Shown: positions 2,524 to 40,477 of the stretch, piece after piece
Layout: the number at the start of each line of letters is the position of its first letter
Position numbering within the stretch: position 1 is the stretch's first letter
IMG/VR virus record: IMGVR_UViG_3300037607_000006
Span: 1-50,782 of that record
DNA: 50,782 bases
Reading direction: 5' to 3' (one strand)
Origin: a virus
Taxonomy: Duplodnaviria > Caudoviricetes
The notes under the pieces: model-generated
Told to the model about the DNA's origin: nothing
Seen by the model: only the letters and a program-made list of their open reading frames with translations
Databases searched by the model: none
Program-made: the position numbers and the translations under genes

Positions 2524-2551
2524 ATTATATCCATTTATCGTCGTTTGTCAA
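2524..2551 (-). promoter_or_regulatory. canonical sigma70-type promoter for leftward early genes
   Basis: TTGACA-N16-TATAAT; the -35 is one arm of TTGTCAA-N7-TTGACAA palindrome (2545-2565). Confidence 0.7.
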
Positions 2552-2701
2552 GTGGCAATTGACAAGAATACGGGGCAAATTGGCTATGCAACCTTAGAAC
2601 ATTTGATATGCTTCAAACAAAGCGCAAACCGCGCCAGCCTGGGGCGGGGCGGTATTCTGGCTTCCGACTGGGCGGGCGCGTTTATCGTGCGTGAGTTCTA
2701 C

Positions 2702-2720
2702 TTGACAATCATGTTATAAT
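2702..2720 (+). promoter_or_regulatory. short-spacer promoter-like motif TTGACA-N7-TATAAT at start of rightward region
   Basis: cTTGACAatcaTGtTATAAT upstream of GAGG RBS and ATG 2747. Confidence 0.6.
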
Positions 2721-2746
2721 GGTGTATCTCACTCTGCGAGGTACAC

Positions 2747-2977
2747 ATGACACCGACATCTGATCCCGTTCCAAGTTTCACACCGTTTCGAGTTGTCGTT
2801 TTTCTGGCTGGTCTAGTCAGCATCATTTCAGCATTGCCGAGCGTTTCTCCTGATATAAAAGTTATTCTATCCGTTGTCTCTGGCGCGCTGAGTTTAGTGC
2901 TATCTGTGTTCTTCAATGCGGGCACGAGCATCAGTTTTTATCGTCGCGCCATGAATCGTGTACGCGGTGTAAAGTAG
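2747..2977 (+). CDS. putative holin / 2-TM membrane protein
   Basis: 76 aa, two hydrophobic segments, basic C-terminus (RRAMNRVRGVK), GAGG RBS. Confidence 0.55.
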   Translation: MTPTSDPVPSFTPFRVVVFLAGLVSIISALPSVSPDIKVILSVVSGALSLVLSVFFNAGTSISFYRRAMNRVRGVK

Positions 2978-2987
2978 TGACGTTATC

Positions 2988-3013
2988 GAGCCGATCAACT
3001 GGTCGGCTCTTTT
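2988..3013 (+). terminator. intrinsic terminator
   Basis: GAGCCGATC-aact-GGTCGGCTC-TTTT. Confidence 0.7.
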
Positions 3014-3141
3014 GTATTGGCCGCATGAGGCGGCTAACCTCCTGATGCCCGCGCCGTGGGGTCATCGCATACTAATGACGGTGTGCGCTCCGAAAGGGAA
3101 TGGGGCAAGGCAAAGCAACACGGCGCGGGTGAAGGGTCGCA

Positions 3142-3624
3142 ATGCAGAGCGCCGATCTAGCCATTATCATTTCAGCCGTGGCCGTTTTGATCGGCGCGTA
3201 TGCCACGTATCGCAACAGTGTTCGCAAATCTGAGTTCGAGCGATTGCAGGCGCGCGTCGTTGATACCGAAAGGCGATTGGCTGAATCCGAAGCCAGGGCC
3301 GCAGCCAATGAGCGCAGGGCATTAGACAGTGAGCATCGCGCAGACGAATACCGGCAGGCCGTAGTTAAGATCGGTGAGGCGATGGTAGAAGAACGAACTG
3401 AGACGGCGCGAAGGCTGGCGCTGATCGTCTCGGATGGCAACGCAAAGATTCAGAAGGTTGTCATCGTCCTGGAAAAAGTCATGTCGGACCTGGAAGCCGC
3501 CACGGGTACCAAGCCCGATATTGACATGGAAGCGTTGAAGCGCCTGGTCGTCATCGATTCCGTTACGGGGCAGTTGGGGCCGCTTGACGTGGCCGCTGTG
3601 AGACGCTACGAGCAAACACACTGA
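3142..3624 (+). CDS. N-terminally anchored coiled-coil membrane protein (lysis-region protein)
   Basis: one TM (LAIIISAVAVLIGAYA) followed by long coiled coil. Confidence 0.65.
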   Translation: MQSADLAIIISAVAVLIGAYATYRNSVRKSEFERLQARVVDTERRLAESEARAAANERRALDSEHRADEYRQAVVKIGEAMVEERTETARRLALIVSDGNAKIQKVVIVLEKVMSDLEAATGTKPDIDMEALKRLVVIDSVTGQLGPLDVAAVRRYEQTH

Positions 3625-3630
3625 GATTGT

Positions 3631-3948
3631 ATGTGCAATGGCAAAGCAACGATCCTTCACAACACATTCACCATTATCGCCGCGAACGAAGCCGCTTGCG
3701 CGATGTTTAGGTGTGAGGAAGCCGACTTACTCGATCTTGATCTAGTTGAGATCATTACTGATGAATCTCTGCAAGGACTGGCGGCTCTGCGACTTAAGAC
3801 CATGCGAGAATTGCGAGATTTGGGCGATCAGGATTTACCGCTGTGGCGACCGGATGGCACAAAGTTTTGGGTCAACATCAAGACGCGGCGGCTGGAAGAA
3901 AAGTTATACCAGTCTGAGTTGAAATACAAATACGAGATTCCCACATGA
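3631..3948 (+). CDS. stand-alone PAS-domain protein
   Basis: IIAANEAACAMFRCEEADLL..DL.EII and PAC-like LWRPDGTKFWVNIKTR. Confidence 0.8.
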   Translation: MCNGKATILHNTFTIIAANEAACAMFRCEEADLLDLDLVEIITDESLQGLAALRLKTMRELRDLGDQDLPLWRPDGTKFWVNIKTRRLEEKLYQSELKYKYEIPT

Positions 3949-4361
3949 TTAACGGCCTGACTCTGCAATACCTATTTCTGATCGTGATCCTCGCCTCAAC
4001 TGTGGTCATTGCGTCAATCCGAGTCGGGGCGTTGTGGCTGCGGCTGGCGCTGATCGATCTGCTGGCGGCGATAACGGTATTCATCATCGCCGCGATTGAC
4101 CGGGCAAGCGGCGTCATGCGAGTTACGGATGAGATGGCCGATCTGATCACGCTGCTTTCTATCAGCGTGATTTTGTTTGCATTCTTCGCGGCCTATCGCC
4201 GCCGCGCTTATCTGATGCGCGCCGAGCAAGAACGTAAAAATGATCTATGGGTCAAGCATGGCGACACCATCGCCGGCCTGGAGTCAGACCGCGCCATGGA
4301 TGAACACAAGTATAACCACAATTGGAATACGATGGTCACACATCGGATCGGACCGCGCTGA
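3945..4361 (+). CDS. 3-TM membrane protein
   Basis: three hydrophobic segments, ATGA-coupled to the PAS gene. Confidence 0.7.
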   Translation: MINGLTLQYLFLIVILASTVVIASIRVGALWLRLALIDLLAAITVFIIAAIDRASGVMRVTDEMADLITLLSISVILFAFFAAYRRRAYLMRAEQERKNDLWVKHGDTIAGLESDRAMDEHKYNHNWNTMVTHRIGPR

Positions 4362-4362
4362 T

Positions 4363-4716
4363 GTGTCCAAGCACGGCGTTACCGAATGGTTGCAGGTATT
4401 TGAAGATGACCGATCGATCTTCTTTGATCTCGAAACTGATTTGCTCGTGGCGATGGACGAAGGCGGTAACATCTCTGATGTCAATCCGGCATTTGAGAAG
4501 GTGTTGGGCTACAGCAAAAGCGACGTGATGGGCAAGAGTTTAATCATGTTCATTGCGTCCGAGGATTTGAGCAAGACGGCTCCGCTGTTGTGCTTCCTCA
4601 GGCGCGGCGGCGGACAGGTGATTTGTCAGATCATTAAGTGGAGTTACAAGAAGTATCACCACTATGCCATTTTCAGAATTGTCACATCTAAGAGTGGATT
4701 GCAGGGAGCGCAATGA
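4363..4716 (+). CDS. stand-alone PAS-domain protein
   Basis: FFDLETDLLVAMDEGGNISDVNPAFEKVLGYSKSDVMGKSL is a classic PAS S-box; GTG start inferred within ORF 4240..4716. Confidence 0.85.
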   Translation: MSKHGVTEWLQVFEDDRSIFFDLETDLLVAMDEGGNISDVNPAFEKVLGYSKSDVMGKSLIMFIASEDLSKTAPLLCFLRRGGGQVICQIIKWSYKKYHHYAIFRIVTSKSGLQGAQ

Positions 4717-4868
4717 TCGAGGAAGATAGCATTGACTTTGGTTACGCCGATGGCGCCGTAGGATGCTCGTTGCCCGATCTGCGCTATACGTTGGCGCTTG
4801 TCGCGGGCGTTGCTGTTGTCGCCGTTGCGCTGGTAGTCGTGATCGTCAACAAAATGAGGTTGTGGTGA
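4713..4868 (+). CDS. small single-TM protein (51 aa, not in ORF track)
   Basis: GGGAG RBS, ATGA overlap; MIEEDSIDFG...LALVAGVAVVAVALVVVIVNKMRLW. Confidence 0.6.
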   Translation: MIEEDSIDFGYADGAVGCSLPDLRYTLALVAGVAVVAVALVVVIVNKMRLW

Positions 4869-5467
4869 CGCAGTATTACACGATGGCGATCAAAGACGGC
4901 GCGATCACTTTTACGCCAGTGGCTGAAAATCCGCCCAGCGCGCAGACGTTGATCAATGTGCCTTATCTCTCGCAACTCAGCGCGACAGCATCCTACGCTC
5001 CTGGCGACTGTGGCGCGGCATGTTTGGCGATGCTGATTAACTGGCAGGGTAAACAGATCGTGACGGTGGACGATGTGAGCAGGGCGACCGGGCAGCCGCT
5101 AGGCTATAAGGCGCTTTCATTCGATGCGATGATCCACGCGGCGGCGAAGTTCGGGTTGACGCTCAAGCATACCTACGGCTTTCTGGCCGATGACATTGAT
5201 ATAGAAATCCAGATGGGCAAGCCGCTCATTGGATTGGTCAACTACCAAAGCATCCCGCCGGCGTTGCGACGCGAGGCGCTTTACAACGCAGGTCACTGGA
5301 TCGTCGTCGTCGGCAGCGATTTGACCGGCATCACCTATCACGATCCAGACTGGCCAGATGCAAGCGGTGGCGCAAACAAGCGCATGGCTGCGGCCGATTT
5401 CATCAAGGCGTTTCAAGCCGTCGCGCCTGGGAATGCGCTGGCGTCTCATGCGCTGGTGATACGATGA
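4865..5467 (+). CDS. C39-like cysteine peptidase (candidate endolysin)
   Basis: VPYLSQ, DCGAACLAM, GHWIVVVG, YHDP catalytic Q/C/H/D motifs; GTG start inferred. Confidence 0.8.
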   Translation: MTQYYTMAIKDGAITFTPVAENPPSAQTLINVPYLSQLSATASYAPGDCGAACLAMLINWQGKQIVTVDDVSRATGQPLGYKALSFDAMIHAAAKFGLTLKHTYGFLADDIDIEIQMGKPLIGLVNYQSIPPALRREALYNAGHWIVVVGSDLTGITYHDPDWPDASGGANKRMAAADFIKAFQAVAPGNALASHALVIR

Positions 5468-5658
5468 CGGATTACATCATGGCCGAAATCGAGACGGATC
5501 GTTTGTCTGATATAGTCGCGCATCAGCGTGAGCGAGTGACGGCGCTCCCCGACGAGACGAACGACATACCGATCAATGAGGCGGTTGCGGCGTGCCAGCG
5601 CATCAGCGCGGATTTACACAAGAGCATCTATGAAACCGAAGGCGGGTGCCTGACATGA
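5464..5658 (+). CDS. hypothetical protein
   Basis: ATGA-coupled ORF. Confidence 0.55.
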   Translation: MTDYIMAEIETDRLSDIVAHQRERVTALPDETNDIPINEAVAACQRISADLHKSIYETEGGCLT

Positions 5659-5801
5659 ATCAACCAGATTGGATTTACAATGAAGCGCAGCGCATCCAAG
5701 CCGAGCGGCGACTCGCCCGCATCGAAGCCGCGATCGGCGCGGCGGTTGTTGCGGTATGGACAGTGATCATTATCGAGGCGATCAAGGGATTGGTGCATTG
5801 A
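5655..5801 (+). CDS. small single-TM protein (48 aa, not in ORF track)
   Basis: MNQPDWIYNEAQRIQAERRLARIEAAIGAAVVAVWTVIIIEAIKGLVH, coupled overlaps at both ends. Confidence 0.5.
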   Translation: MNQPDWIYNEAQRIQAERRLARIEAAIGAAVVAVWTVIIIEAIKGLVH

Positions 5802-7240
5802 ACTGGCAGAACGTCACGGTAAAACTATCTGACCTGCAACCGTGGGAGCACAACCCGCGCACGATGACGAAGCGGCAAGCGCAACGGCTACTCAAATCAT
5901 GGCAGGATTTGGGGCAGTTTCAGACTATCGCCATCGGGCCATTTATCAAGAATGGCGACGGCAAGTCGTATTGTCCGGTCTATGACGGTCATCAGCGATT
6001 GAGTGCCCTGCAAGCGGCGCACGGCGCAGCATTCCTGATCGATGCGCGCCAGTCGGATCGAGAATTGACCGACGAGGAGCGCCGCGAGTTGACCGTACAG
6101 GCCAATCTCCCGGCTGGCTCGTGGAATTGGGACGCGCTATCCGGTTGGGATGCGGCGCAGTTGCAAGAATGGGGCTTCGATCAAGAAGCGTTGAAGGCGT
6201 GGAATACGGACGCGGCGAATCTGGCGACGATGCTAACGGCAGATAAGATAGCAAATGCCGCCGCACCTGTTTCTGATGGTATCTTTACAAATGAGCAAAT
6301 CATAGATGCGGCGTTTACTTACTTTCGATCTTCTGGATTCCCGTTTTACAATTATCCTATTCATGTTTCAATGCAAGAGATAAACAAACTTTCCAGAACA
6401 GATACAGAAATTTTGTTGCATAGCGATACAGCCTATCATGTGGCAGATACTTATCATCGGCATAGGTTTTTCGTAAGTGCTGAGGGAATGAAAAGCCCTA
6501 TCGATGGATTCAATGATAATAAAATCATGCGTCGCATGATTACACTTGCAATCGAAAGCGGATATACTGTTTCTGATGGCGCGTGGGGGAAAATTTGGAT
6601 TGCGAGTGGAGTGCAGGCGGCGTCAAACTTTAGACCGGCATTCGCGCTTTATCTTTATCGCCGTTTCGCTCCTACCGGCGCTACTATATTAGATACTTCG
6701 ACCGGATACGGAGGTAGACTTGTCGGCTTCATGGCGTCTGGTCTTGATCGGTATATCGGCATTGATCCGAACATTCCGACGCACGAAGGCAATATGCGCA
6801 TGGCGCACGATTTAGGATTTACCGATCGAGTTGAGTTGTATAACCTACCCGCTGAGGATGTGTCGCATGATGCGCTTTCTAATCGTTGTGACTTTGCATT
6901 TACTTCTCCACCCTATTTTTCAAAAGAGCATTACAGCGAAGATGATACACAGTCATGGGTGAGATATAAAACGGGTGAGGACTGGCGCTGTGGATTTCTA
7001 TTGCCCATGATGCGCTTGCAGTACGTAGCACTTAAAAGCGATTCATACTCAATCGTCAACATCGCAGATGTGAAGTTGAGAAATGCAGTTTATCCGTTGG
7101 TACAATGGACTATAGACGCTGGAAAAGAATGCGGATTCGAGTTTATCAATCAAGAGCGTTTCGAGTTGACGCGGCGCTTCGGCGCTGGTCAATCCGATGA
7201 AGTATCGTATGAACCCGTTCTTATATTCAAGAAGGCATAG
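5756..7240 (+). CDS. ParB-like N-terminal domain fused to amino-DNA methyltransferase (true start probably TTG 5798)
   Basis: L.PWEHNPR and YDGHQRL (ParB/Srx-like); ILDTSTGYGGRL SAM-binding and FTSPPYF catalytic motif. Confidence 0.8.
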   Translation: MDSDHYRGDQGIGALNWQNVTVKLSDLQPWEHNPRTMTKRQAQRLLKSWQDLGQFQTIAIGPFIKNGDGKSYCPVYDGHQRLSALQAAHGAAFLIDARQSDRELTDEERRELTVQANLPAGSWNWDALSGWDAAQLQEWGFDQEALKAWNTDAANLATMLTADKIANAAAPVSDGIFTNEQIIDAAFTYFRSSGFPFYNYPIHVSMQEINKLSRTDTEILLHSDTAYHVADTYHRHRFFVSAEGMKSPIDGFNDNKIMRRMITLAIESGYTVSDGAWGKIWIASGVQAASNFRPAFALYLYRRFAPTGATILDTSTGYGGRLVGFMASGLDRYIGIDPNIPTHEGNMRMAHDLGFTDRVELYNLPAEDVSHDALSNRCDFAFTSPPYFSKEHYSEDDTQSWVRYKTGEDWRCGFLLPMMRLQYVALKSDSYSIVNIADVKLRNAVYPLVQWTIDAGKECGFEFINQERFELTRRFGAGQSDEVSYEPVLIFKKA

Positions 7241-7251
7241 GATTTAACAAT

Positions 7252-7782
7252 ATGCCTATTAACACTCATCAGAGCGACATGGTAAAAATGCGCCGTGAGT
7301 TAGTCGGCCAACTCCGCGCCAAAGGCATGACGACCCGCGAGATTGCAACGGCACTCGCACAGCGTAAAGACCCGATCGAGGTCACGCATGTTACAATCGC
7401 CTCAGATTTGAAGGCACTTAAAAAGCAATGGGCAGCGAATGCTGAAGCGTTCATCGGGGAGCATATCGCCCGCGAATTGGCCGAGATTGAAGAAGCCAAG
7501 CGCGAGGCGCGGCAGGCAGGCAATCTCGAAACGTGGGCGCGATTGCTGGCGCTAGAGATGAAACTACTCGGCACGGATGCGCCGCAAAAGACCGAGGATT
7601 GGACAAATAAAGATTGGCGAGAATATGCAAGGCAGCATGGATACAGTGAGGGCGAGGTCATTGCAGAGGCGCAGCGCATTATCGCCGCTTCAAGTCGCGG
7701 CGAATTTGTGGATCAGGCAGGAAGTGATCCAGAAGCCAGCGACGCAGACCCCGCCGAATCTGAATCAATGGATCAACGATGA
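7252..7782 (+). CDS. terS: terminase small subunit (HTH)
   Basis: LRAKGMTTREIA...TIASDL HTH; directly upstream of and overlapping TerL. Confidence 0.7.
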   Translation: MPINTHQSDMVKMRRELVGQLRAKGMTTREIATALAQRKDPIEVTHVTIASDLKALKKQWAANAEAFIGEHIARELAEIEEAKREARQAGNLETWARLLALEMKLLGTDAPQKTEDWTNKDWREYARQHGYSEGEVIAEAQRIIAASSRGEFVDQAGSDPEASDADPAESESMDQR

Positions 7783-9085
7783 GATCACGATCGAAGAACC
7801 GCAAGGCGACACCGTGAGCGTCATCCCGTTTCACTTGTGGCCGGCACAGCGCGACGCACTCGATCTGATTGAGCGTGAGCCGCAGACGATCATCTTGAAG
7901 GCGCGGCAACTCGGTATCTCGTGGCTGTGCATCGCGTATGCGCTATGGCTCTGCTTGTTTCACCCGAACAAACTGGTCATGGTGTTCAGCAAGGATCAGG
8001 ACAGCGCCAACGAAATGATTAGGCGCGCAAAGGGCATCTATCAACGATTACAGCGCAAGCCGGCGACTATGAACGTCGATAACGTCACCACGATCGGCTG
8101 GTCTAACGGGAGCCGCATTAAATCATTTGCGGCGACTGAGGACGCGGGATCATCATATACCGCATCGCTTACGATCATCGATGAATTTGCAAAGATGCGT
8201 TACGCCAACGAACTATATACCAGCGTCATGCCGACGATCGCAGATGGCGGCAAGATGATCATCCTCAGCACGGCGCGCGGCGAGGGCAACCCGTTTCACA
8301 AGTTATGGGAGTCTGCCGTCAAGCGGGCTAATAGTTTCTGCGCGTTATTCCTGCCATGGTCGGCACGGCCTGACCGCACAACCGAATGGTACGCGGCGAC
8401 CGGGGCTGACGCGATCTCATCGGCGCATCACCAGCAGGAGTATCCCGCCACGCCCGACGAAGCGTTTGTATCGATTGGTGAGGATCGTTTTCTTTCCTCG
8501 ATCCTGCTATGGGATGCTTGCCATGAGGATTTGCCGCCGCTGGGCCGTGATGAGCCGATGATCGTAGCCATTGACGCGGGCGTATCTAACGACTCGTTTG
8601 GGTTGGTCGGTGTGACGGCGCATCCGTCGCGCTCTGGTGATTATGCGGTACGCATCGCGCAAGAGTGGAAGCCGCCGCACAATGGCAAGATCGATTTTCG
8701 TGGTAGTGCTGACGCGCCAGGACCGGACTGGACAATCCGCCACATACTTGTGCCGAAGTATGCCATTGTCCAAGTCGTCTACGATCCCTATCAACTTGAA
8801 TCATTGTGCGCCGATCTAATGCATGATGGCGTGATTCAATGTGTACCCTTCACGCAGCAGCGCGATCGGCTTGAAGCCGACAAGTTTCTGTATGATACTA
8901 TTCTGGCGCGGCGCATCGCGCACGATGGTAACGCCGATCTACGGCGACACATTGACAACGCGAACCGCAAGGTTGACCTTGAATCGCGCAAGTTGCGCAT
9001 TGTGAAGCGCGAAGAGTCGTTGAAGATCGATCTAAGCGTATGCTTGAGCATGGCGCTCTATTCCGCGCAAAAGGTAGGACTGTGA
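7577..9085 (+). CDS. terL: terminase large subunit (start uncertain, likely 7625-7700)
   Basis: ILKARQLGISW Walker A, IIDEFA Walker B, LSTARG, AIDAG nuclease aspartate, KIDLSV. Confidence 0.92.
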   Translation: MRRKRPRIGQIKIGENMQGSMDTVRARSLQRRSALSPLQVAANLWIRQEVIQKPATQTPPNLNQWINDEITIEEPQGDTVSVIPFHLWPAQRDALDLIEREPQTIILKARQLGISWLCIAYALWLCLFHPNKLVMVFSKDQDSANEMIRRAKGIYQRLQRKPATMNVDNVTTIGWSNGSRIKSFAATEDAGSSYTASLTIIDEFAKMRYANELYTSVMPTIADGGKMIILSTARGEGNPFHKLWESAVKRANSFCALFLPWSARPDRTTEWYAATGADAISSAHHQQEYPATPDEAFVSIGEDRFLSSILLWDACHEDLPPLGRDEPMIVAIDAGVSNDSFGLVGVTAHPSRSGDYAVRIAQEWKPPHNGKIDFRGSADAPGPDWTIRHILVPKYAIVQVVYDPYQLESLCADLMHDGVIQCVPFTQQRDRLEADKFLYDTILARRIAHDGNADLRRHIDNANRKVDLESRKLRIVKREESLKIDLSVCLSMALYSAQKVGL

Positions 9086-19513: not shown

Positions 19514-19542
19514 CGATCCGAACGCGACCGATCATCTTGAAG

Positions 19543-19569
19543 GGGGCGGCGCAAGTCGCCCCCACTTTG
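19543..19569 (+). terminator. GNRA-capped hairpin / weak terminator after MCP
   Basis: GGGGCGGC-GCAA-GTCGCCCC..CTTT. Confidence 0.5.
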
Positions 19570-19578
19570 AAACCTGCA

Positions 19579-20298
19579 ATGCGCGTATTCATCTACTCAT
19601 CCGACAAAACGCAATGGTCACTCAGGCCGTTTGCATATTTGTTTAACCTCTATTGGTCGAGTGATCAGCCCGTGATCGTGTTCGGCAATAGTGAACTGCC
19701 GTTCAAACTGCCGCGCAATTTCTCATGGCATAGCATTGGGCCGTTTAAGCCGGCTGAGGAATGGACGACCGATCTGATTGACGCGCTCAACTTTATCGAT
19801 GATGAGATCATTTGCCTGATGATGGACGACTACTGGGTTAATCGCATGGTTGATCAGCGGGCGGTACGCTGGTGTTTCCTCTATATGCGCGAACATCCAG
19901 AAGTGGGGCGTTTCGATATCTGCACCGATCGGCTTTATGCGCGAGACATGACGGACTACACTAAGATCGGTTATCTTGACGTGATCAAGAGTGACCCGCT
20001 ATCGCCTTACCATTTCTCTTATCAGGCTAGTTTGTGGCGGCGCGAGACGTTGTTGAAGTGCGTTGCGCCGCACGAGACGCCCTGGCAGTCTGAGATCTCA
20101 GGCGATGCGCGTCTGCGTGAAACCGGCGCACTCGTGCTGGGCACGCGCCAGGGGCCGCTACGCTACACCATCGCCGTGCAAAAGGGTCAGTTCATGCCGG
20201 ACGGCGGATACCAAACGCTGTCAAACGCCATGAATGAGGATGACGTGGCATACATCAGGGGGCAGGGGTGGATACCTGCCGAGTTCCTGGCGGCGTGA
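19579..20298 (+). CDS. putative GT-A fold glycosyltransferase
   Basis: ICLMMDDYW (DxD-like), SYQASLWRR.TL, ETPWQ.E motifs. Confidence 0.65.
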   Translation: MRVFIYSSDKTQWSLRPFAYLFNLYWSSDQPVIVFGNSELPFKLPRNFSWHSIGPFKPAEEWTTDLIDALNFIDDEIICLMMDDYWVNRMVDQRAVRWCFLYMREHPEVGRFDICTDRLYARDMTDYTKIGYLDVIKSDPLSPYHFSYQASLWRRETLLKCVAPHETPWQSEISGDARLRETGALVLGTRQGPLRYTIAVQKGQFMPDGGYQTLSNAMNEDDVAYIRGQGWIPAEFLAA

Positions 20299-20339
20299 AA
20301 TAGTTTTGAACTTAAGAAATATTGAGTCAGATTGTCATT

Positions 20340-21086
20340 ATGACAGAAATCATCGTCTGCGGCTTCCCGAAATCGGGTAATACCTGGCTCACGCGTCTCT
20401 TGTCTGATGCGCTGGACTATCCAGTCATCGGCGTTGACGATGCGATCCCGTTAAGCGCAGAATGGCAAGAGCGACACGGCGACGGCTTGATTCGTCAGTT
20501 GCATCTCACGCCGATCCACAACCACGAGCCGCGCTTCGTCGCTTCGCGCTATTACCTCAACATCGATCGGCACGCCGGCGAGAAGGTGATACACATCTAC
20601 CGCGATCCGCGTGACGTGGCCGTGAGCGTGTGCGCTTATTGGGAACTGGGCGATCTGCCCCGTGTCGTACGTGAAGTCATGGCGACCGGTTCACGGCCAT
20701 TGTGGGGTACGGGCTGGCCTGAGTTTATGGCGACGTGGCGCAAAACGGACCTACCGCATATTGAGACACGTTACGAATGGCTGCACGCTGACACGGCAAC
20801 GGAAATCAGGCGGCTGTGCGACCTGATGGGCGTCAAGATCGTTAAGCCGCTTGACGAAGTGATCCGGCGCAATGCGCTCGAAGCGAAGCGGGCGGCAATC
20901 AATGCGACGGATGACATCGCCACTCACCTGCCCCACGGCAAGCACGCGCAATTGATGCTCCTGCGCGCTGGGCGCGTGGGCGATTGGCGCGAGGCTTTCA
21001 ATGCCGAGGCGCGCACGGCGGCGCACGACTGTTTTGATGATTGGCTGATTGAGTTGGGCTATGAGTACGATCGCAACTGGAACTGA
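20340..21086 (+). CDS. PAPS-dependent sulfotransferase
   Basis: GFPKSGNTWL (5'-PSB loop), YRDPRDVAVS (3'-PB), RYE.L, LRAGRVGDWR. Confidence 0.92.
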   Translation: MTEIIVCGFPKSGNTWLTRLLSDALDYPVIGVDDAIPLSAEWQERHGDGLIRQLHLTPIHNHEPRFVASRYYLNIDRHAGEKVIHIYRDPRDVAVSVCAYWELGDLPRVVREVMATGSRPLWGTGWPEFMATWRKTDLPHIETRYEWLHADTATEIRRLCDLMGVKIVKPLDEVIRRNALEAKRAAINATDDIATHLPHGKHAQLMLLRAGRVGDWREAFNAEARTAAHDCFDDWLIELGYEYDRNWN

Positions 21087-21657
21087 CATTCCGCTGGTCT
21101 TCATCGATCGCATTGCCGATTGGTTCTGTGATTCATTCGGTGATCCATACCACAACCCGCGCATGGACAAATCGCTGGGCTTGTATCGGCTGGCGGCGCA
21201 AGTGAGCAATGGCGTGATCGTGGAGTTGGGTGCGTACCAGGGCAACGGCGCGATCTCACTGGCGAGTGGTGCCCCGCTGCGCCCGGTCTATACCGTCGAT
21301 GACTATAACCATCGCGTCGACTGGATGGGCAACGAGCCGGGGAATGAAGATAAAGAGATACTACACGGCAACATCGAAGAAAGCGGCCTGCCGATCGCGC
21401 ATCTCGACAAGTCGGTTAGCGCGGCGCTGAAAGATTGGCGGCTGCCGATCGGCCTGCTGTTTTGGGATACCGGATCAAATGAAATGTTGGATGATTTCAA
21501 CCTGTGGCAGAAGCACATCATCAGCGGCGGTATGTTCGTGATGCACGACACCGACGACTTCACGTTTCATTCTGACGATGTGACGCGGGCGGCGTTGGCG
21601 CTGGGCTGGACGCTGGGGCCGCAGTATCGCACGCTGTATACTGTGGTGAAACCATGA
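21061..21657 (+). CDS. class I SAM methyltransferase (Methyltransf_24-like, probably sugar O-MTase)
   Basis: IVELGAYQG, YTVDDY, IGLLFWD, GG.FVMHD. Confidence 0.8.
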   Translation: MSTIATGTDIPLVFIDRIADWFCDSFGDPYHNPRMDKSLGLYRLAAQVSNGVIVELGAYQGNGAISLASGAPLRPVYTVDDYNHRVDWMGNEPGNEDKEILHGNIEESGLPIAHLDKSVSAALKDWRLPIGLLFWDTGSNEMLDDFNLWQKHIISGGMFVMHDTDDFTFHSDDVTRAALALGWTLGPQYRTLYTVVKP

Positions 21658-22358
21658 CGATCGCCTTCTGGATTGCCGATCAACCGGGCTACGTCAGCGA
21701 GGCCATGCAAAGCGCGGCGTCATTCAAGCGGCACAATCCCGCTTGCGCGACGGCGCTATTTGGCAGCAGCACGGACAGCGCATTTGATTTCATCTATCCC
21801 CTGCCGGCGCGCCAGAGCGAACATTGGTACTTGGACAGTGTGAGATATTTTAGTCACGCCCTGCATACGCTGCATCATGACAGCCTGATCTATTTCGACG
21901 TAGACACCTACACACTCGCGCCGCTAACTGATCTCATTGCGCTGATCGGACGTTTCGATCTAATTGGCGCGCACGCCCCTGCCCGCGAGACTGCGCCGAC
22001 TGTCAACCCTGTGCCGGATGCGTTTCCAGAAATCAATATCGGCGTGCTGGGCATTGCTAACAATGCCGTAATGAAACGCTTTGTGAGCGATTGGCTGCAG
22101 CGTTACGAGTTGTATCACGCCATCTATGGCAACAACGATCAAGCCCCGTTGCGTGAGGCGCTCTGGTATGCGAAGGTGGTGAATCTCTACGTCATGCCGC
22201 CTGAGTACAATTGCCGCTTTGGGTTCGGCGGCTTCGCGGCCTTGCCCGTTAAAGTGCTGCACGGGCGCGGCATGTCGTTTGAGGCGGCAGAGAAGATCGT
22301 CAACCACGCGCCGGGGATGCGCGCCTGGACGAATGCTGATTTGAGGCAGACGAGTTGA
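21654..22358 (+). CDS. GT8-like / nucleotide-diphospho-sugar transferase
   Basis: IYFDVDT DxD, EINIGV, NDQ.PLR, MPPEYN. Confidence 0.8.
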   Translation: MTIAFWIADQPGYVSEAMQSAASFKRHNPACATALFGSSTDSAFDFIYPLPARQSEHWYLDSVRYFSHALHTLHHDSLIYFDVDTYTLAPLTDLIALIGRFDLIGAHAPARETAPTVNPVPDAFPEINIGVLGIANNAVMKRFVSDWLQRYELYHAIYGNNDQAPLREALWYAKVVNLYVMPPEYNCRFGFGGFAALPVKVLHGRGMSFEAAEKIVNHAPGMRAWTNADLRQTS

Positions 22359-23125
22359 GCGAATATACGTTGTATTTGGGCGATTGTCTTGACTTCATGC
22401 ATGGCATGGATGCGGGTAGCATCGATATGGCATTCCTTGATCCGCCGTTCAATAAAGGAAAGAGGTATCTTTCGTATAGAGATAAACGTATTGACTATTG
22501 GGAATGGACAGAGGCATGGTTTAGTGAAGTGGTGCGCCTATTAAAGCCGGAAGGATCGCTCTACTTCATGCACATTACTGATGGACTAGCTAATGTTCTG
22601 GCGCTTATTGGTAAATTAGAACTTAACTTACAGAACGTGATACCGTGGAAAAATGCGGCTTCAGTTCATACTAAAACTAAGTTCATTAGATGCTATCAGC
22701 CTATTGTATTTGCAACTAAGAACGGTCGTCATTATTTTGACACTTATTATCAGACCAATCCTAATGCTATCAAGTCTTGGAGCAAAGACCGCAGAGACAG
22801 ACAGCGCGGTCAATTGCTGGATATTTGGGACGATATACCAAGAGTATATGCGGGTTCAGTCGTTCATAAAGAGGCTGTCTTACTTCCTGGCACTCGTAAA
22901 AAGGCGCATCTATGCCAAATGCCGATCGGATTAGCTAGTAGAGCAATAGGCTTTAGTTGCCCGCCTAATGGGATGGTATTTGATCCATTTATGGGCAGCG
23001 GCACAACGGGCGTAGCCTGTGTGCCGTTAGGCCGCAACTTCATCGGCTGTGAGATTGACCCTAGCTATTATGCAATTGCAGAACGGCGCATAAATGAATC
23101 AAGAGAGCAGTTGACGCTTATATGA
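22355..23125 (+). CDS. N6A/N4C DNA methyltransferase (beta class)
   Basis: GDCLDFM, DPPF, H.CQMP, VFDPFMGSGTTG, FIGCEID. Confidence 0.92.
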   Translation: MSEYTLYLGDCLDFMHGMDAGSIDMAFLDPPFNKGKRYLSYRDKRIDYWEWTEAWFSEVVRLLKPEGSLYFMHITDGLANVLALIGKLELNLQNVIPWKNAASVHTKTKFIRCYQPIVFATKNGRHYFDTYYQTNPNAIKSWSKDRRDRQRGQLLDIWDDIPRVYAGSVVHKEAVLLPGTRKKAHLCQMPIGLASRAIGFSCPPNGMVFDPFMGSGTTGVACVPLGRNFIGCEIDPSYYAIAERRINESREQLTLI

Positions 23126-23556
23126 GCGAATATAACCCGCTCCAGAATGATGAATACTTTGACCGAGGCAACGCCGGCCACAATGCCCGTTACTACAACG
23201 AACGCGGCATTCGCATTGACACACGCGGCACGCTCCAGATTCACCCTGAATCGCGCTGGGGTTTCTTCGTCACGGTGATCACACTCTCGCATCAGCGCAG
23301 CAAGAACGATCACCTAATCGATGGCGCATTAGTCGATCGGCCTGTCATTGTCGATAAGGACGCCTGGATATGCTCAAATGCTGTACTTTACAACTGCCAC
23401 ATTGGCGAGGGCGCGATCGTCTCGGTTGGCGCGGTGGTGCGCAGTCAAGAGGTTAAGCCGCGCGTTATGGTTGCGGGCAATCCGGCGCGCGTCATTGCGC
23501 GACAGATTGACGGTGAATGGGTGTACGTGAATCCAAAATGGGAAGTGCTTGAATGA
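23122..23556 (+). CDS. left-handed beta-helix (hexapeptide) O-acyltransferase
   Basis: PVIVDKDAWICSNA..IGEGAIVSVGAVV..VAGNPARVI. Confidence 0.85.
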   Translation: MSEYNPLQNDEYFDRGNAGHNARYYNERGIRIDTRGTLQIHPESRWGFFVTVITLSHQRSKNDHLIDGALVDRPVIVDKDAWICSNAVLYNCHIGEGAIVSVGAVVRSQEVKPRVMVAGNPARVIARQIDGEWVYVNPKWEVLE

Positions 23557-24098
23557 GTACCGCGCTTGAATTGGCTGTGGCCTTTGACTACCTGACGGTG
23601 CGTGAAGTGGGCTGCATCAAAACTTACGTGCAGCGTATGCCGCATTTCTCGGTCGGCGTCAACATCGGCAGCGGCGCGGGCACGTCGGTTCTGGCCGCGC
23701 TGGAAGAGCGCAGCGATATAACCCTGTATGACATCGATCTGAATCTGCTGAATGCGTCGGATCAGTATCGCTTGGCAGGCGTCGAAGGCGATGGGCGCTT
23801 GATTCGCATGGAAGGCGACAGTAAGCATTTGCCGTGGACTTACGGGCAGATTCATTACCTGTTCGTGGATGGTGATCACAGCGAAGAGGGCATACGCGGC
23901 GATCTGCATGAGTGGGTGCCGCGTGTAGCACCGGGCGGCTTTATTCTGTTGCACGACTTCTGGCCCTACCCCTCCGATCATCCACAAGCGGGCATTGATT
24001 GGTGGCCGGCTGTGCGCTCCGCGGCGCTGGAGATGCTGGACGATTACGCAGTAGTCGCAGACGTTGATCGGATCAGGGTCTATCAGGTGAGGCAATGA
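23553..24098 (+). CDS. class I SAM methyltransferase (Methyltransf_24-like)
   Basis: VNIGSGAGTS, GDS, LFVDGDHSEEG, PGGFILLHDF, WPAV. Confidence 0.85.
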   Translation: MSTALELAVAFDYLTVREVGCIKTYVQRMPHFSVGVNIGSGAGTSVLAALEERSDITLYDIDLNLLNASDQYRLAGVEGDGRLIRMEGDSKHLPWTYGQIHYLFVDGDHSEEGIRGDLHEWVPRVAPGGFILLHDFWPYPSDHPQAGIDWWPAVRSAALEMLDDYAVVADVDRIRVYQVRQ

Positions 24099-26692
24099 AA
24101 GTCTGCTTACGCCCTCGCCTCTCGCAACTCTCGCCCACGAACGGCATAGGCCGCGTCGCCTACGCGCAGTACCGCGACTTGCCTAAGTATGGGATCGAGT
24201 TCGTTGACGATCCGGCCGAGGCGGATATTTGCGCGGGGCATACGGACGTCTACGACATGCCGCGTATCGATGTACTGCATTGTCACGGGCTATACTGGAC
24301 TGGCGACATTGACAGCGGCGTTTACACATCATACGCAATCAAGGCGAATCAGGCCATTGCTAACGCGGCGCGGCTGGCGCATACGATCACGGTGCCAAGC
24401 GATTGGGTTGCAATGCCCTTCAAACGAGATATGCGCATCAATCCGATCGTCATCGGGCACGGCATCGACTTTGAGGCGTGGAAGCCTGCCGAGTCGGTAT
24501 CTGACTTCGTGCTATGGAACAAGAACCGCGTGATGGATGTCTGCCGGCCCGATGCGCCTTTCGAGTTGGCGAAGCGCGGTATACAGGTTGTCAGCACCTA
24601 CGGGCCCGAAGGCGTGACATGGCCGCAGACATTGATGGTTATTGGCAAGCAAGACGCCGTTTGTATGCGCGATTTCGTCATGCAGGCGTCGGTGTATCTC
24701 AGCACGACAAAAGAGACATTCGGCATCGGCACGCTTGAAGCAATGGCTTGCGGCGTGCCAGTCGTCGGCTGGGACTATGGCGGCACGTCGCAGATCGTGA
24801 CGAGCGGCTATGATGGCATCCTGGTCAAACCGGGCGACTATGACGCCCTAGAAGCCGCCGTGCATGAGGCGAAACGCCGCAGGATCGATTTTGGCAAAAA
24901 TGCGCGTGAGACAGCGCGACGTTACGACTGGTCAAACGTCATCCGGCAATATGCGCGGCTCTATGAGATGGTGCTGGCGCAGAAGCGCAACGAGCAGCAT
25001 GGCGTTAGCGTGATCGTCACCAACTACAACTACGGCGCTTTCGTAGGAGAGGCGATTAAGAGTGTCATGCTCCAAACACGCCCCGCCGATGAGATTATCG
25101 TTGTAGACGATGGCAGCACGGATGAAAGTCCGAGAATAATCCTTGCGACTTTACAGGCTACGCAACCTAATCAAAAATGTCAGTTTATTACTCAGGCGAA
25201 TCAAGGCGTGGCGGCGGCACGGACAGCCGGCATCGCCGCGAGTTCGCAGCCATACCTTGTTTGCCTCGATGCTGACGATAGACTAGCACCTGAGTTCATC
25301 GAAACACTGTTGCCGGTCATCGATGCGCGGCGCGATCTCGGCATCGTCTACAGCGGTATTACGATGTTCAATGATACCGACTCTTGGCACAATGACGGCT
25401 GGCCGCCACCGTTTGACTGGGATGGGCAGACCATGCCGCACAATCCGCCGTCGAATTGCATCCCAGCGGCGTGCATGTTCAGGAAAGATATGTGGTATAG
25501 GGCTGGCCCACATCGCCAGGAATACGCGCCGGGTGAGGATGCTGAGTTTTGGACGCGCGGCCTGTCAGTCGGCTTCACGGCGCAGCGGGTGACGGACGCG
25601 GGGCTGTTCTGGTATCGGCTGCACGGCGAGAGCGCAAGCCGCGTCAAGAAGTACAAGGCCATTGACGATCGCCTGCCCTGGATGCGCGACAAGCAATACC
25701 CATTTGCGGCTCCCGCAAAGGTGACGCCGGTCCGATCTTACAGCGATCCGAAGGTCAGCGTGATTATCCCGGTTGGGCCGGGGCACGAAAACACCGTCAT
25801 CGACGCGATTGAATCGCTGCTGGCGCAGACGATGCGCGAGTGGGAGTGCGTCGTTGTCGATGATACCGGGCTGGACAGTGGCTTGGGAATGTACCTGTTA
25901 GGCCGCTATCCATTCGCTAAGGTGCTGCTGAATCAGCAAGCACCGGGCGGCCCTGGACTGGCGCGCAATGCAGGACTAGAGCAAGCCGCCGCGCCGTTGG
26001 TAGTGTACCTCGACGCCGATGACATGCTTGTACCCACGGCGCTGGAAGAAATGCTGATTGCTCACGTCAACAGCGGCGGGCGATACATCTATACCGATAC
26101 GCTGCGCTTGTCGAAGGACGGCACGCAAGAGACGATCAAGGCCGCCGATTATAAGCAGCACATCTGGCGCGATGACGGATTGCACAGTGTGACGGCTTTG
26201 ATCCCGATCGAGTGGGCGCGGGCAACGCGCTTCAACCCAAAACTAAAGACTTGGGAAGAGGGCGATTTCTATACCCGCATGGCGATCGCGGGCTACTGTG
26301 GGCAGCACTTGGAAAGGCCGCTCTTGATCTGGCGCGACTGGACCGGCACGCGACACGCCGCGAGTAAGGCGAAGCGGGCGGCGGCGCTGCGGCATCAGAA
26401 ACAATTCGAGGGGGTTGAGATGGGATCGTGTTGTGGCGGCGACGGCGGCGCGGCAATCATCGCGGCGAAAGAAGCACTGAGCGGCATGACGATCAAGGCC
26501 GCGCCGATCAATACTGGATTGGTACGCATGGAGTTCATCGGCGATCAGTTCGGGCCAATTACCTTTTTTGGCAGCAAGGGAAAAGAGTATCGCGGCGGCA
26601 AAGAGATTGAGAACCACTTCGCAGAAGTATTGGCCGAGGATGTGAAGCGGTTGGAGTTATCGGGCAAATGGCAAGTCGTGGCGACGTTCTAG
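24095..26692 (+). CDS. trifunctional glycosyltransferase (GT4 + GT2 + GT2)
   Basis: ETFGIGTLEAMACGVPVV (GT4); VSVIVTNYNY..VVDDGSTD..LDADD (GT2); VSVIIP..VVDD..YLDADD (second GT2). Confidence 0.92.
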   Translation: MKVCLRPRLSQLSPTNGIGRVAYAQYRDLPKYGIEFVDDPAEADICAGHTDVYDMPRIDVLHCHGLYWTGDIDSGVYTSYAIKANQAIANAARLAHTITVPSDWVAMPFKRDMRINPIVIGHGIDFEAWKPAESVSDFVLWNKNRVMDVCRPDAPFELAKRGIQVVSTYGPEGVTWPQTLMVIGKQDAVCMRDFVMQASVYLSTTKETFGIGTLEAMACGVPVVGWDYGGTSQIVTSGYDGILVKPGDYDALEAAVHEAKRRRIDFGKNARETARRYDWSNVIRQYARLYEMVLAQKRNEQHGVSVIVTNYNYGAFVGEAIKSVMLQTRPADEIIVVDDGSTDESPRIILATLQATQPNQKCQFITQANQGVAAARTAGIAASSQPYLVCLDADDRLAPEFIETLLPVIDARRDLGIVYSGITMFNDTDSWHNDGWPPPFDWDGQTMPHNPPSNCIPAACMFRKDMWYRAGPHRQEYAPGEDAEFWTRGLSVGFTAQRVTDAGLFWYRLHGESASRVKKYKAIDDRLPWMRDKQYPFAAPAKVTPVRSYSDPKVSVIIPVGPGHENTVIDAIESLLAQTMREWECVVVDDTGLDSGLGMYLLGRYPFAKVLLNQQAPGGPGLARNAGLEQAAAPLVVYLDADDMLVPTALEEMLIAHVNSGGRYIYTDTLRLSKDGTQETIKAADYKQHIWRDDGLHSVTALIPIEWARATRFNPKLKTWEEGDFYTRMAIAGYCGQHLERPLLIWRDWTGTRHAASKAKRAAALRHQKQFEGVEMGSCCGGDGGAAIIAAKEALSGMTIKAAPINTGLVRMEFIGDQFGPITFFGSKGKEYRGGKEIENHFAEVLAEDVKRLELSGKWQVVATF

Positions 26693-31281: not shown

Positions 31282-31568
31282 TTCTCGCGTGCGCGGATTA
31301 CGCGGAACACAAGACGCAAGACGCGCCGCGAGAGTTGGAAATCTGGTTCGATTGGTCTACCTTCAACCTGCCCTATGTGACTGGCGGTCAAGCCGATCAG
31401 CCGTATGCGCTGATGCGGCGGATTCGTGCAGCGCGCAACGTCTATGAGGCAATGCATCAATTGCGCGTATCGAAAGATTGGGGCGCAATGCAGGCCGAAA
31501 TGCCGGACGCATGGCGCATTGTTGAGATGGTCACGAAACTGAGAGAGGATCGAGCGCATGGCCGATAG
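31275..31568 (+). CDS. tail assembly chaperone frameshift extension (gpT-like)
   Basis: RLILACADY...LPYVTGGQADQP in -1 frame, no independent SD. Confidence 0.7.
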   Translation, partial: RLILACADYAEHKTQDAPRELEIWFDWSTFNLPYVTGGQADQPYALMRRIRAARNVYEAMHQLRVSKDWGAMQAEMPDAWRIVEMVTKLREDRAHGR

Positions 31569-35969: not shown

Positions 35970-37454
35970 ATGACACCCTCACTCAATCTCTATGATCCCC
36001 TGCTCTACGGTAACGGTCCGTTAGGTGACTATACCTCGGTATTCACTCCATCGTGGCGGCGCTCGATCCGCAGGCGCGGCGGCTTTTGGGTCGGCACCGT
36101 CGATGTGACCGAGAAGGAAATGACGCAAGCCGAGATGGAAGATTTCTTCCGCTATGGCCTCATGCGCGAACTGCGCGAAGGGGTCGGCGGGCAGGAAACC
36201 TGGCGCGGCGCATTGATGAAAATGGAGTACACGAAGGGCAATCAACTCTTTACCACTGACATCACGCGCATGAGCAACGCTGTCAAGGTGATCTATACGC
36301 GCATCTGGCCGACTCTACTCACCAACGGATCGGCGGAGTCGGGCGCGTGGGCATCCTACAACAGCGGCACATCGGCGCAGTCGACCGTATGGCACGCAGA
36401 CGGAACTTACTCCGATCTGATCACGACGACCGGCACCACGCAGGGCGCGCGGATTCAGACGACGATCGCGGTTACAGCGGGCCAATCCTATATCATCGAA
36501 GGCCGCCTGAATGTCGTTAGCGGCTCGTGGCGCGTGAGCGCCAATCGCGCCGACAATGATCAATCATTGGCTTTCTTCTCGACACGCGGCGGTGCGCCGG
36601 GTGACTACACCGTGAGCATGACGATCCCGGCAACCTCGACCTATACCGGCAATTGCGATTTGCGCATTACGGCAGAGTCAGGCGGCACGACGCAGATTTA
36701 CGGCGATTCATTTTCGTTCAGACAAACGCCGATCCCAAACGTCAACACTGGCTGGTATCAATCCAATGATTCGATCGCGGTATGGGGCCGAAAAGAGAAT
36801 GTGATCCTGGAGCCAGGCAAGACAACCGCAGCCGCGAACACCGAGGCGCAAACGTACCTCTCGCGCTGGGGCTGGCCGCAGCCCTACCCACCAACGAACT
36901 ACACCGCGATCGCGGCGGGATCAGAAACGCCGGGTTCGCATCTACGCTTGACCTTTGCGGGCTATTGGGCCACGTTGAACTGGCTCAGTGTGCCACAGGC
37001 GATCGACACCGGTACGATCGCCAACCTTGTAACGGCGTTAGTCGGGCAGCAATCCACCTACATCACGATCGCTCAGGTTGAAGCCAACACGACCGACTAC
37101 GCGATCGACAACCGCTCGATCCTGTTGATTGGCGACGTGATCAAGGACATTGCGGGCGACGGTAAATCGGGCGGCGCATTGTATAGCGCGGGCGTGTTGA
37201 CCAATCGCCAGTTTTTCTACAACCAGGTGCCTGCTGAACTGACCTACCATTTGCGCGGAGGTGATCTGTACAGCGTGAGTGATTCGTTGTATGAGCCGTG
37301 GCTGGCGCGTCCGGGCTATGCGCTCTGGCAGGATTTGCCGATTAGCCCCGGTGTGCCTTCATTGTTTGCTAACAACGATCCACGCTGGGTCTACATCGAA
37401 GAAATTGAAATGCTACCGGGCGGGCAACTCACCTACAACCTGGAGCCGCAATAA
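35970..37454 (+). CDS. tail hub/tip protein with carbohydrate-binding-like insert
   Basis: position; LLTNGSAESGAW...V.AGQSY CBM-like segment. Confidence 0.55.
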   Translation: MTPSLNLYDPLLYGNGPLGDYTSVFTPSWRRSIRRRGGFWVGTVDVTEKEMTQAEMEDFFRYGLMRELREGVGGQETWRGALMKMEYTKGNQLFTTDITRMSNAVKVIYTRIWPTLLTNGSAESGAWASYNSGTSAQSTVWHADGTYSDLITTTGTTQGARIQTTIAVTAGQSYIIEGRLNVVSGSWRVSANRADNDQSLAFFSTRGGAPGDYTVSMTIPATSTYTGNCDLRITAESGGTTQIYGDSFSFRQTPIPNVNTGWYQSNDSIAVWGRKENVILEPGKTTAAANTEAQTYLSRWGWPQPYPPTNYTAIAAGSETPGSHLRLTFAGYWATLNWLSVPQAIDTGTIANLVTALVGQQSTYITIAQVEANTTDYAIDNRSILLIGDVIKDIAGDGKSGGALYSAGVLTNRQFFYNQVPAELTYHLRGGDLYSVSDSLYEPWLARPGYALWQDLPISPGVPSLFANNDPRWVYIEEIEMLPGGQLTYNLEPQ

Positions 37455-40400: not shown

Positions 40401-40477
40401 GCGATGTTGTCACCTTTGCGACCCCGCCCGCCCCTGGCGCGTTGATCACATTCGCGTATGATGTGGAGATCGTCTAA
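37454..40477 (+). CDS. receptor-binding tail protein: beta-helix + DUF2341-like + 5-bladed glycoside-hydrolase-like propeller
   Basis: AAVSGDTVWLP beta-helix start; five NP(I/V)....WD repeats with IGYATS.DG..W blades; DLRVT..DG..LLP and VYYGNP DUF2341 halves. Confidence 0.75.
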   Translation: MPIAFGERQHPVWDALRVQTLQGLPTSDQISGAAAISGLGNSIIVYHSSGADLELFDPTQAGLILALAAAVSGDTVWLPSMTIAITAALTIPADIALVGITEKSRISGATVILSAGVFLERTTIINSQNDASDHVAIQGPATGLAYIGHCTLTCINAGSGGASAINGGAGALYVHDSTLTGTASSGAGYGVFAGAGNITLDDCWVLGSTSPLFGTGGGGGGTVYTAGAEISTGAITVNSGAGDAISGLSIASWYAVECFGGPFNANPADPRDSYHYTVSNDGGSVWSGLLGNTGISMQLIAPTWGVNPVDLDGLHARFFFQATTTSILIRTGDFYWVDNTGTLSWRLRAATATTGGGTIANIYTHGVRMAIVSGDPQLGDRSVWDVLNHGDRHANDIALDTPLYHLPTATADGQVPIWDAASGEWLPSSSITNPVPAAPEGWLTPWQYRYLVTIANSGSLHTNYKVAIDVNTLPLVEAGLCNPDLSDLRVTAADGVSLLPFFRANDALLFNESNFSRYASNPILVSGGGGAWDNGWVHPNSLIDMGNGTYRLYYSANNTPGDSNTPDHIGYATSTDGIAWTKYVSNPIVSPGAGGAWDDTKVDHFCVIRESASVWKAWYMGSNGSLLRIGYATSSDGITWSKSGSNPVLSSTAATWDSAFVVPSKVLFISGTYYLFYWGGTSTGTQTTWKIGLATSTDGITWTKSGNNPILSGAGSGDWDAGVLDVDVVHIGNTFFMFYQGNVSSGNNSAIGIATSTDLINWTRYSTNPFPRGGGGSWDSDWNEGPTLARIGTQWMMYYMGKGSTTTKSIGLMEFPDTRLWPVIPTVPAAGSVDVFVYYGNPAAADASTGSAGSPDGNITTTNGTQSTPALAAWDDEAQPGAHAKDIDDASYTLHLNPALNPDVGTFGDASNIPQITVDARGLITAIVNVPVSIPAPVINTYNEEITATGATTYYLANYAVPGSLRVYINGILQPVTDDTVPSDVVTFATPPAPGALITFAYDVEIV

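Follow-up and report, generated by a model that had tools for sequence, protein, structure and literature searches.

Why should a tailed phage carry two stand-alone PAS-domain genes among small membrane-protein genes and next to a peptidase gene? The question is raised by IMG/VR record IMGVR_UViG_3300037607_000006, a linear tailed-phage contig (CheckV completeness 89%) which was analysed over its whole length of 50,782 bases, hereafter the window. An annotation made from the letters alone (the sequence-only reading) had described a putative lysis cassette, running from a holin-like gene at 2747 to a C39-like peptidase gene at 4865, in which two PAS genes are interleaved with membrane-protein genes, and had proposed that each PAS protein pairs with its membrane neighbour to make lysis conditional on host physiology. 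We found that the conserved core of this locus consists of a membrane gene, a gene for a coiled-coil protein with one transmembrane (TM) segment (hereafter TM-coil), the two PAS genes (PAS1 and PAS2) and a hydrolase gene, to which optional TM accessories are added. Our preferred reading, to which we assign a probability of roughly 0.45, is that the 1-TM holin-like protein is bound at its cytoplasmic coil by the PAS proteins, which would shift the timing of lysis according to a small ligand or the redox state in the host. The seven open reading frames stand in the order and at the coordinates originally given, all on the plus strand, and the locus reads as follows.

2747..2977, plus strand: 2-TM holin-like protein, 76 amino acids, basic C-terminal tail (hydrophobicity windows, layout)
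2988..3009, plus strand: hairpin resembling an intrinsic terminator, directly 3' of the 2-TM gene (9 pairs, U-tract)
3045..3135, plus strand: RNA predicted to fold into a three-way junction closed by a 12-bp stem (z = -2.83; 1 of 200 shuffles equally good)
3142..3624, plus strand: TM-coil protein, 160 amino acids, candidate 1-TM holin or lysis regulator and candidate partner of PAS1
3631..3948, plus strand: PAS1, stand-alone PAS domain, 105 amino acids (AlphaFold model, Foldseek; Pfam score slightly under the cut-off)
3945..4361, plus strand: 3-TM protein, 138 amino acids, basic cytoplasmic tail, optional accessory (hydrophobicity windows)
4363..4716, plus strand: PAS2, stand-alone PAS domain, 117 amino acids, GTG start (Pfam, model, Foldseek)
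4713..4868, plus strand: 51-amino-acid protein with an acidic N-terminal part and a C-terminal TM segment, optional accessory (hydrophobicity windows)
4865..5467, plus strand: C39-like cysteine peptidase, 200 amino acids, GTG start, predicted endolysin (Pfam, PHROG)
5464..5658, plus strand: small conserved gene 3' of the peptidase gene, 64 amino acids (same slot in relatives L085 and L177)

From 3142 to the peptidase gene, neighbouring genes abut or overlap as had been read, with a 6-nucleotide gap followed by a 4-nucleotide overlap, a 1-nucleotide gap and two further 4-nucleotide overlaps. A contig from a separate sequencing run spans positions 2809-5900 and differs from the window at a single base, which shows that the order of the genes did not arise in assembly.

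To assess how far this arrangement is conserved, we compared five independent loci that carry PAS2 (L004, L006, L085, L086 and L177); a sixth, L084, was left out as a near-duplicate of the window (99.97% identity). Their gene orders are as follows.

L085: 3-TM gene, TM-coil, PAS1, PAS2, C39 gene, small gene, terminase, portal
L177: 2-TM gene, TM-coil, PAS1, PAS2, gene for a protein of about 630 amino acids without family match, C39 gene, small gene, terminase
L004 and L006 (contigs ending at PAS2): TM-coil, PAS1, 3-TM gene, PAS2
L086: portal, PAS2, acidic 1-TM gene (72 amino acids), gene for a 354-amino-acid protein, M23-SH3 peptidase gene

The order TM-coil, PAS1, an optional 3-TM gene and PAS2 is kept in four of the five relatives and persists even though their PAS1 proteins are only 26-35% identical to that of the window. 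The invariant neighbour of PAS1 is the TM-coil gene, which lies directly before it in all four relatives that have PAS1 and in 5/5 loci when the window is counted. A multi-TM gene precedes TM-coil in both relatives with upstream sequence, and all three relatives that reach far enough have a predicted wall hydrolase (C39 or M23-SH3) within three genes after PAS2, together with a terminase gene in the locus. The small gene after C39 shows 51% identity over aligned columns to the same-slot genes of L085 and L177. That the PAS genes keep company with membrane genes and a gene for a lysin-type peptidase, a check named in the sequence-only reading, is borne out across relatives. Its fixed TM-PAS-TM-PAS design, with a separate membrane neighbour for each PAS protein, did not hold: the 3-TM gene that follows PAS1 occurs in two of the four relatives with both PAS genes (L004, 28% identity; L006, 24%), and it and the 1-TM gene after PAS2 are both missing from L085 and L177, the latter gene having a 72-amino-acid acidic counterpart in L086. 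Three pairs of PAS1 and PAS2 clusters also match in the size of their longest contig (2763, 7946 and 6906 bases), an unverified hint of further co-occurrence.

Two side observations concern these neighbourhoods. Related proteins (E = 1e-11) are encoded directly 3' of PAS2 at positions 6669-7733 of L086 and 4289-6175 (minus strand) of L177; these 354- and approximately 630-residue proteins gave no Pfam or PHROG match, and that of L086 also gave no PDB match. Their motifs suggest barrels of glycoside-hydrolase type, and they are candidate new lysins. On an unrelated viral contig (L087, 4096-6351), a TM gene, an M15 peptidase gene, a PAS-PAS gene (308 amino acids) and a coil gene that weakly matches a holin lie in one run; this is a separate case of PAS adjoining lysis genes.

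AlphaFold models and Foldseek identify both proteins as PAS domains, as originally annotated, and Pfam does so above its cut-off for PAS2. PAS2 scores above the Pfam cut-off (PF00989, E = 6.9e-10, 39.4 bits against 22.6) and also passes TIGR00229, whereas PAS1 falls slightly under the cut-offs (PAS_9, E = 1.7e-5, 25.5 against 27 bits; NCBIfam TIGR00229, 22.2 against 22.9), which its homologue in L085 exceeds for PAS_9. The models (predicted local distance difference test score 90.5 for PAS1 and 75.2 for PAS2) fit the PAS fold, a five-stranded sheet with a helical connector, and the top Foldseek matches of both are all solved PAS domains, with probability 1.00. A longer PAS2 reading frame starting at 4240 was rejected, as the N-termini of homologues begin at the position of 4363. 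BLASTP gave no alignment between PAS1 and PAS2 and their profile-to-profile identity is 17%, so they are not recent paralogues. Hydrophobicity windows detected no TM segment in PAS1, PAS2 or the peptidase. The lack of an output domain, also part of the sequence-only reading, was upheld: a Pfam scan and six-frame searches detected no kinase, receiver, GGDEF or helix-turn-helix output either fused to the PAS domains or in the operon, and HATPase_c, Response_reg and GGDEF were absent from six-frame searches of the genome (89% complete) and of three related records, in which positive controls were detected.

Judged by sequence comparison, PAS1 and PAS2 each head a stand-alone family of their own, apart from host PAS domains, and both families are common in public metagenomes (at least 50 clusters for PAS1 and at least 120 for PAS2). 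A PAS2 profile search yielded 143 relatives, of which the 120 examined are 89-147 amino acids long; this search was confined to proteins of 48-217 amino acids, placing fused forms outside its reach. The PAS1 search accepted any length, and among its best 150 matches were 50 short proteins (88-128 amino acids) scoring 91.9-137 bits against a profile built from short ones, the other 100 being multi-PAS proteins of at least 427 amino acids whose best single domain scored no more than 43.9 bits. In DNA scans for PAS2 without a length limit, family members scored 133-179 bits versus at most 48.7 bits for PAS domains in long frames, the latter figure covering 80 of 199 confirmed metagenome loci and the best 80 of 317 GTDB loci. 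Those 80 GTDB loci scored at most 48.2 bits and are all PAS domains within frames of at least 200 amino acids, in a motif-based scan which prophage copies with other motifs could escape. PAS2 found no match among GenBank phages, and pattern scans of viral-contig DNA returned family members in 3/10, 2/10 and 3/7 matches, the remainder giving no profile score; a match in L168 was rejected as chance. PAS-fold proteins occur in other phages and in giant viruses too, several of them short and annotated simply as PAS domain. In phylogenetic trees, a single branch separates 28 PAS2 sequences from 27 host domains (support 100/98) and 51 PAS1 sequences from 40 host domains (1.0), a split which is partly by construction because tree members were picked by similarity. 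The proportion of nonsynonymous differences (pN) is below that of synonymous differences (pS) in every pair (pN 0.28-0.41 for PAS2 and 0.36-0.53 for PAS1, with pS saturated at 0.60-0.88).

Residue conservation differs between the two families. PAS1 has near-invariant residues at H10, L50, R54, R73 and F79, and H10 and R54 are kept in 54 of 55 sequences even though the alignment columns average no more than 32% identity. General PAS topology would place the H10 and R54 positions toward the pocket, and these residues suggest a polar or anionic ligand for PAS1. FixL-type heme PAS domains carry their proximal histidine on the F-alpha helix; in an alignment of PAS1 to the heme PAS domain 10jx, the first histidine falls opposite Ala51 and the second opposite Arg54, and no clear histidine of this kind stands out in PAS1. 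Conservation in PAS2 peaks in the N-terminal helix and first strand, with G5, V6, T7, L10 and F13 of the helix conserved in 91-95% of 120 sequences; such N-terminal helices mediate PAS-PAS dimers. The window's PAS2 lacks about eight residues of the helix region that are present in 83% of the family and missing in 17%, and the subclade with this deletion is supported at 97/84. The N-terminal conservation and the tolerated deletion fit a contact role for PAS2 over a fixed pocket.

Hydrophobicity windows predict 2, 1, 3 and 1 TM segments for the products of the genes at 2747, 3142, 3945 and 4713; the description of the 2747 product as holin-like derives only from its size, TM count and position. 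This protein matches neither Pfam nor PHROG at E = 0.01, has one weak NCBIfam model (E = 0.059) and is 25% identical to the 2-TM protein in the same slot of L177. All five TM-coil proteins have, by hydrophobicity and charge counts, one N-terminal TM segment, which is preceded by no basic residue and followed by 3-4, and a tail in which 31-38% of residues are charged. The predicted topology is N-out/C-in, which would put tail and PAS proteins on the same, cytoplasmic side of the membrane. The tail ends in a conserved C-terminal GP motif, and the window's TM-coil is 61% identical to that of L177. In 5/5 these features agree with the description of LysF1b-type 1-TM proteins (single TM segment, N-out/C-in, basic after the TM segment, tail 30-50% charged). 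Pfam scans of the window and relatives gave no match to DUF2746 (PF10874), and a search aimed at this family was silent, as were its controls.

The C39-like peptidase at 4865 was likewise confirmed (Peptidase_C39_2, PF13529, E = 6.6e-9, 36.9 bits against a cut-off of 24). Catalytic residues Q37, C49, H144 and D160 are invariant in the three C39 copies aligned, and the protein matches PHROG 10051 endolysin (E = 1.3e-6) as well as cyanophage genes annotated as lysozyme or endolysin (4/5 records, with two phages filed twice). Of 23 differences between strains listed for this gene, 19 fall at third codon positions (the listing covers 40 of 152 differences). We predict from these matches that the protein is an endolysin. 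PeiR is a lytic enzyme of the C39 family (PMC6189367).

Under the preferred reading, the 2-TM protein and the N-out/C-in 1-TM protein would form the membrane lesion, as LysF1a and LysF1b do. PAS1 would contact the coil of TM-coil, downstream of which it is always directly encoded and with which it shares the same predicted cytoplasmic side, and would act as the ligand reader through its conserved His and Arg. PAS2 may serve chiefly for contact or provide a second input, and the 3-TM and acidic 1-TM genes would be exchangeable accessories. A fuller form of this scheme, which we hold more tentatively and consider possible rather than probable, is that a lineage of sediment phages carries a two-input lysis timer, in which two phage-specific stand-alone PAS sensors respond to ligands in the cytoplasm or to its redox state and control a 1-TM holin directly, without an intervening kinase or transcription step, so that the timing of the burst tracks host physiology. 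The moment of lysis determines burst size and spread; in the phages studied, the holin itself fixes it or superinfection signals delay it. If PAS binding and the timing effect are true, lysis would be controlled in a new way, a small-molecule sensor wired to membrane lysis proteins adding a control layer, and the question whether phages time lysis to host metabolism would be answered. With its compact layout and with PAS proteins that are small, predicted to be soluble and well modelled, the module makes work on ligands and binding easy.

Several observations weigh against the proposal that the PAS proteins act on a holin. No TM gene in the window matches a holin family in Pfam, PHROG or NCBIfam, and the membrane genes of relatives have weak coil-type PHROG matches (E = 0.0007 or worse). 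The genes at 2747 and 3142 are 164 nucleotides apart, and the spacer holds the terminator-like hairpin. A late-operon position is by itself no proof of a lysis role. In L086, PAS2 lies directly 3' of the portal gene and neither PAS1 nor TM-coil was found in the available stretch, so PAS2 does not need its proposed partner to be adjacent. The context comes from five relatives, two of which (L004 and L006) are contigs of 1.4-1.8 kb and of putative phage origin. The LOV photoreceptor motif is NCRFL, and its cysteine motif was found in 0/55 PAS1 and 0/60 PAS2 sequences, which show no known cofactor motif. Finally, H10 and R54 recur in 17/40 and 19/40 of the nearest host PAS domains; PAS1 therefore probably comes from a host subfamily with such a pocket, and the two residues may have been inherited rather than specially kept.

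The alternatives differ in what they take the PAS proteins, or the whole cluster, to be for. Decay of a host sensor kinase, with the PAS genes as its remnants, had been named as one outcome that would undo the sequence-only reading. The succession of TM segment, coil and PAS does resemble a kinase N-terminus, there are weak NCBIfam matches to kinase models, and in the window TM-coil and PAS1 share a frame, two codons apart; in 4/4 relatives, however, their frames differ, for which reason a readthrough fusion of the two was also rejected. Large families of uniform length, pN below pS in all pairs, the branch that parts each family from the host domains sampled, and the gap between the best GTDB score (48.2 bits, best 80 of 317) and those of family members (133-179 bits) largely refute decay, which we regard as very improbable. 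A more serious contender, although still somewhat unlikely, holds that the PAS proteins modulate host signalling proteins such as PAS kinases and cyclases late in infection, or serve as decoys for them, and have their place in the cassette merely for late expression. The strongly conserved, dimer-type N-terminal helix of PAS2, the occurrence of PAS2 without PAS1 or TM-coil in L086, and the lack of any phage kinase, receiver or GGDEF found, which would make the host the source of a classical output, are consistent with this, as is MopJ, a single-domain PAS protein described as interacting with the DivJ kinase (PMC4432633). Against such a role, PAS1 stays behind the same TM-coil gene in 5/5 loci across 26-35% identity, PAS2 precedes a predicted hydrolase in 4/4 loci with downstream sequence (the window included), and neither family lies near the host PAS domains that were sampled.

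Two further alternatives do away with either the ligand or the lysis. Cytoplasmic antiholins exist, T4 RIII being an example, and the PAS folds could be ligand-free antiholins or assembly factors in which a sensor fold is recycled as a binding module. The lack of a LOV motif, the window's PAS2 subclade without some eight helix-region residues (97/84) and the N-terminal concentration of PAS2 conservation would suit this; the retention of His10 and Arg54 in 54/55 PAS1 sequences at 32% mean column identity argues against it, and the presence of two different PAS families side by side is more easily explained by two inputs, which leaves this reading unlikely. It is also decidedly unlikely, in our view, that the cluster, under PAS control, has a role other than lysis in the late phase or in the lysogen, be it surface remodelling, superinfection exclusion or protein processing. 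The absence of holin family matches, the separate terminator-like hairpin of the 2-TM gene and the glycosyl-, sulfo- and methyltransferases of the genome point in that direction, as does the C39 protein, in which no wall-binding domain was detected and whose family is reported also to process peptides (PMC6189367). In L086, however, the same slot is taken by an M23-SH3 peptidase that matches several PHROG endolysin families, and no other lysin family was found among the 56 open reading frames of the window scanned with Pfam.

Nucleic-acid features of the locus add further detail. Terminator-like sites number 6 in the scan versus 3.5 +/- 2.0 in shuffles. The predicted RNA structure at 3045-3135 sits just 5' of the TM-coil start and ribosome-binding region; it matched no Rfam family up to E = 5 save a chance snoRNA, and none at gathering score in six sources. 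A riboswitch or ribozyme at this position was dropped, given the lack of an Rfam family and of blastn similarity in the five relatives. L177 has a 77-nucleotide hairpin-forming spacer between PAS1 and PAS2, for which no sequence similarity was found. An extended -10-like sequence read by eye lies 5' of the 2-TM gene (2712-2720, plus strand) and is absent from the list of the promoter scan, and a perfect 12/12 sigma-70-type promoter at 2524-2551 (minus strand) faces left into the early genes. In run X7, a loose contig end at window position 3010 marks a related strain that joins there with different upstream letters, whose end, as read by eye, is a lysine/alanine-rich stop like those of the 2-TM genes in L177 and L085; exchange of the holin-like gene together with its terminator is possible.

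The cassette opens a long rightward gene run, followed just downstream by a ParB/methyltransferase gene and then the terminase, and so stands at the head of the packaging and structural genes.

7577..9085, plus strand: terminase large subunit (Pfam and PHROG matches)

Pfam and PHROG scans also place a tape-measure-like protein at 31558. Among the 12 terminase matches listed, identity is at most 33%. The stretch 2600-5800 is present in at least 24 public DNA runs (23 from sediment and one freshwater metagenome), of which two may be the record's own source and the 2020 sediment runs perhaps belong to one campaign; no RNA run is among those listed. The phage that carries the PAS pair is uncultured and comes from sediment; the pair also occurs in several of its distant relatives. 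Elsewhere in the genome, Pfam matches at 19537-26692 comprise a sulfotransferase, two Methyltransf_24 genes, a DNA methylase, a hexapeptide-repeat gene and a multi-domain glycosyltransferase gene amid structural genes, possibly a virion or DNA modification pathway, and a 1007-amino-acid tail-region protein (37454-40477) matches glycoside hydrolase 130/32N and DUF2341.

Known systems resemble parts of this cassette. In T4 lysis inhibition, holin T and antiholins RI and RIII show that accessory proteins adjust holin triggering to conditions; unlike the cassette here, that system responds to a superinfection signal, has no PAS fold and uses a holin of opposite topology. The VqmA-Phage receptor has a PAS sensor part. 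As described for vibriophage VP882, it ties a host-derived signal to phage fate (PMC8284805, PMC12802170), as proposed here, but it is a DNA-binding transcription factor of the lysogeny-to-lysis switch, whereas our PAS genes have no DNA-binding domain and lie among late membrane and hydrolase genes. MopJ of Caulobacter crescentus shares the single PAS domain without output domain and action through protein contact; compared by its description only (PMC4432633), it differs in being a chromosomal cell-cycle regulator acting on DivJ, neither phage-borne nor linked to lysis. PeiR (PMC6189367) and the PHROG 10051 endolysins share the papain-like C39 domain with its Gln, Cys, His and Asp; no wall-binding repeats were detected in our protein. 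A search of titles and the openings of abstracts, outside which lay most subscription journals and supplements, returned no description of PAS genes inside a lysis cassette.

The closest layout is that of LysF1a/LysF1b of mycobacteriophages Girr and NBJ, whose role in lysis timing is reported from genetics (PMC13056207), and of LysA2a/LysA2b of D29 (bioRxiv 10.64898/2026.08.27.747656): in these accounts, as here, a small 2-TM gene is followed in an endolysin cassette by one for a 1-TM N-out/C-in protein that is basic after the TM segment and has a charged helical tail. There is no sequence link to LysF1b, and the TM-coil proteins are 124-192 amino acids long here versus 92-150 there; the 164-nucleotide spacer with its terminator-like hairpin replaces a 4-nucleotide overlap, and no PAS gene appears in what those accounts describe. 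The likeness is one of layout, and we do not file TM-coil in the DUF2746 family. The nearest phage precedent found is VqmA-Phage, and we rate the module itself as a putative holin-endolysin cassette with undescribed regulators.

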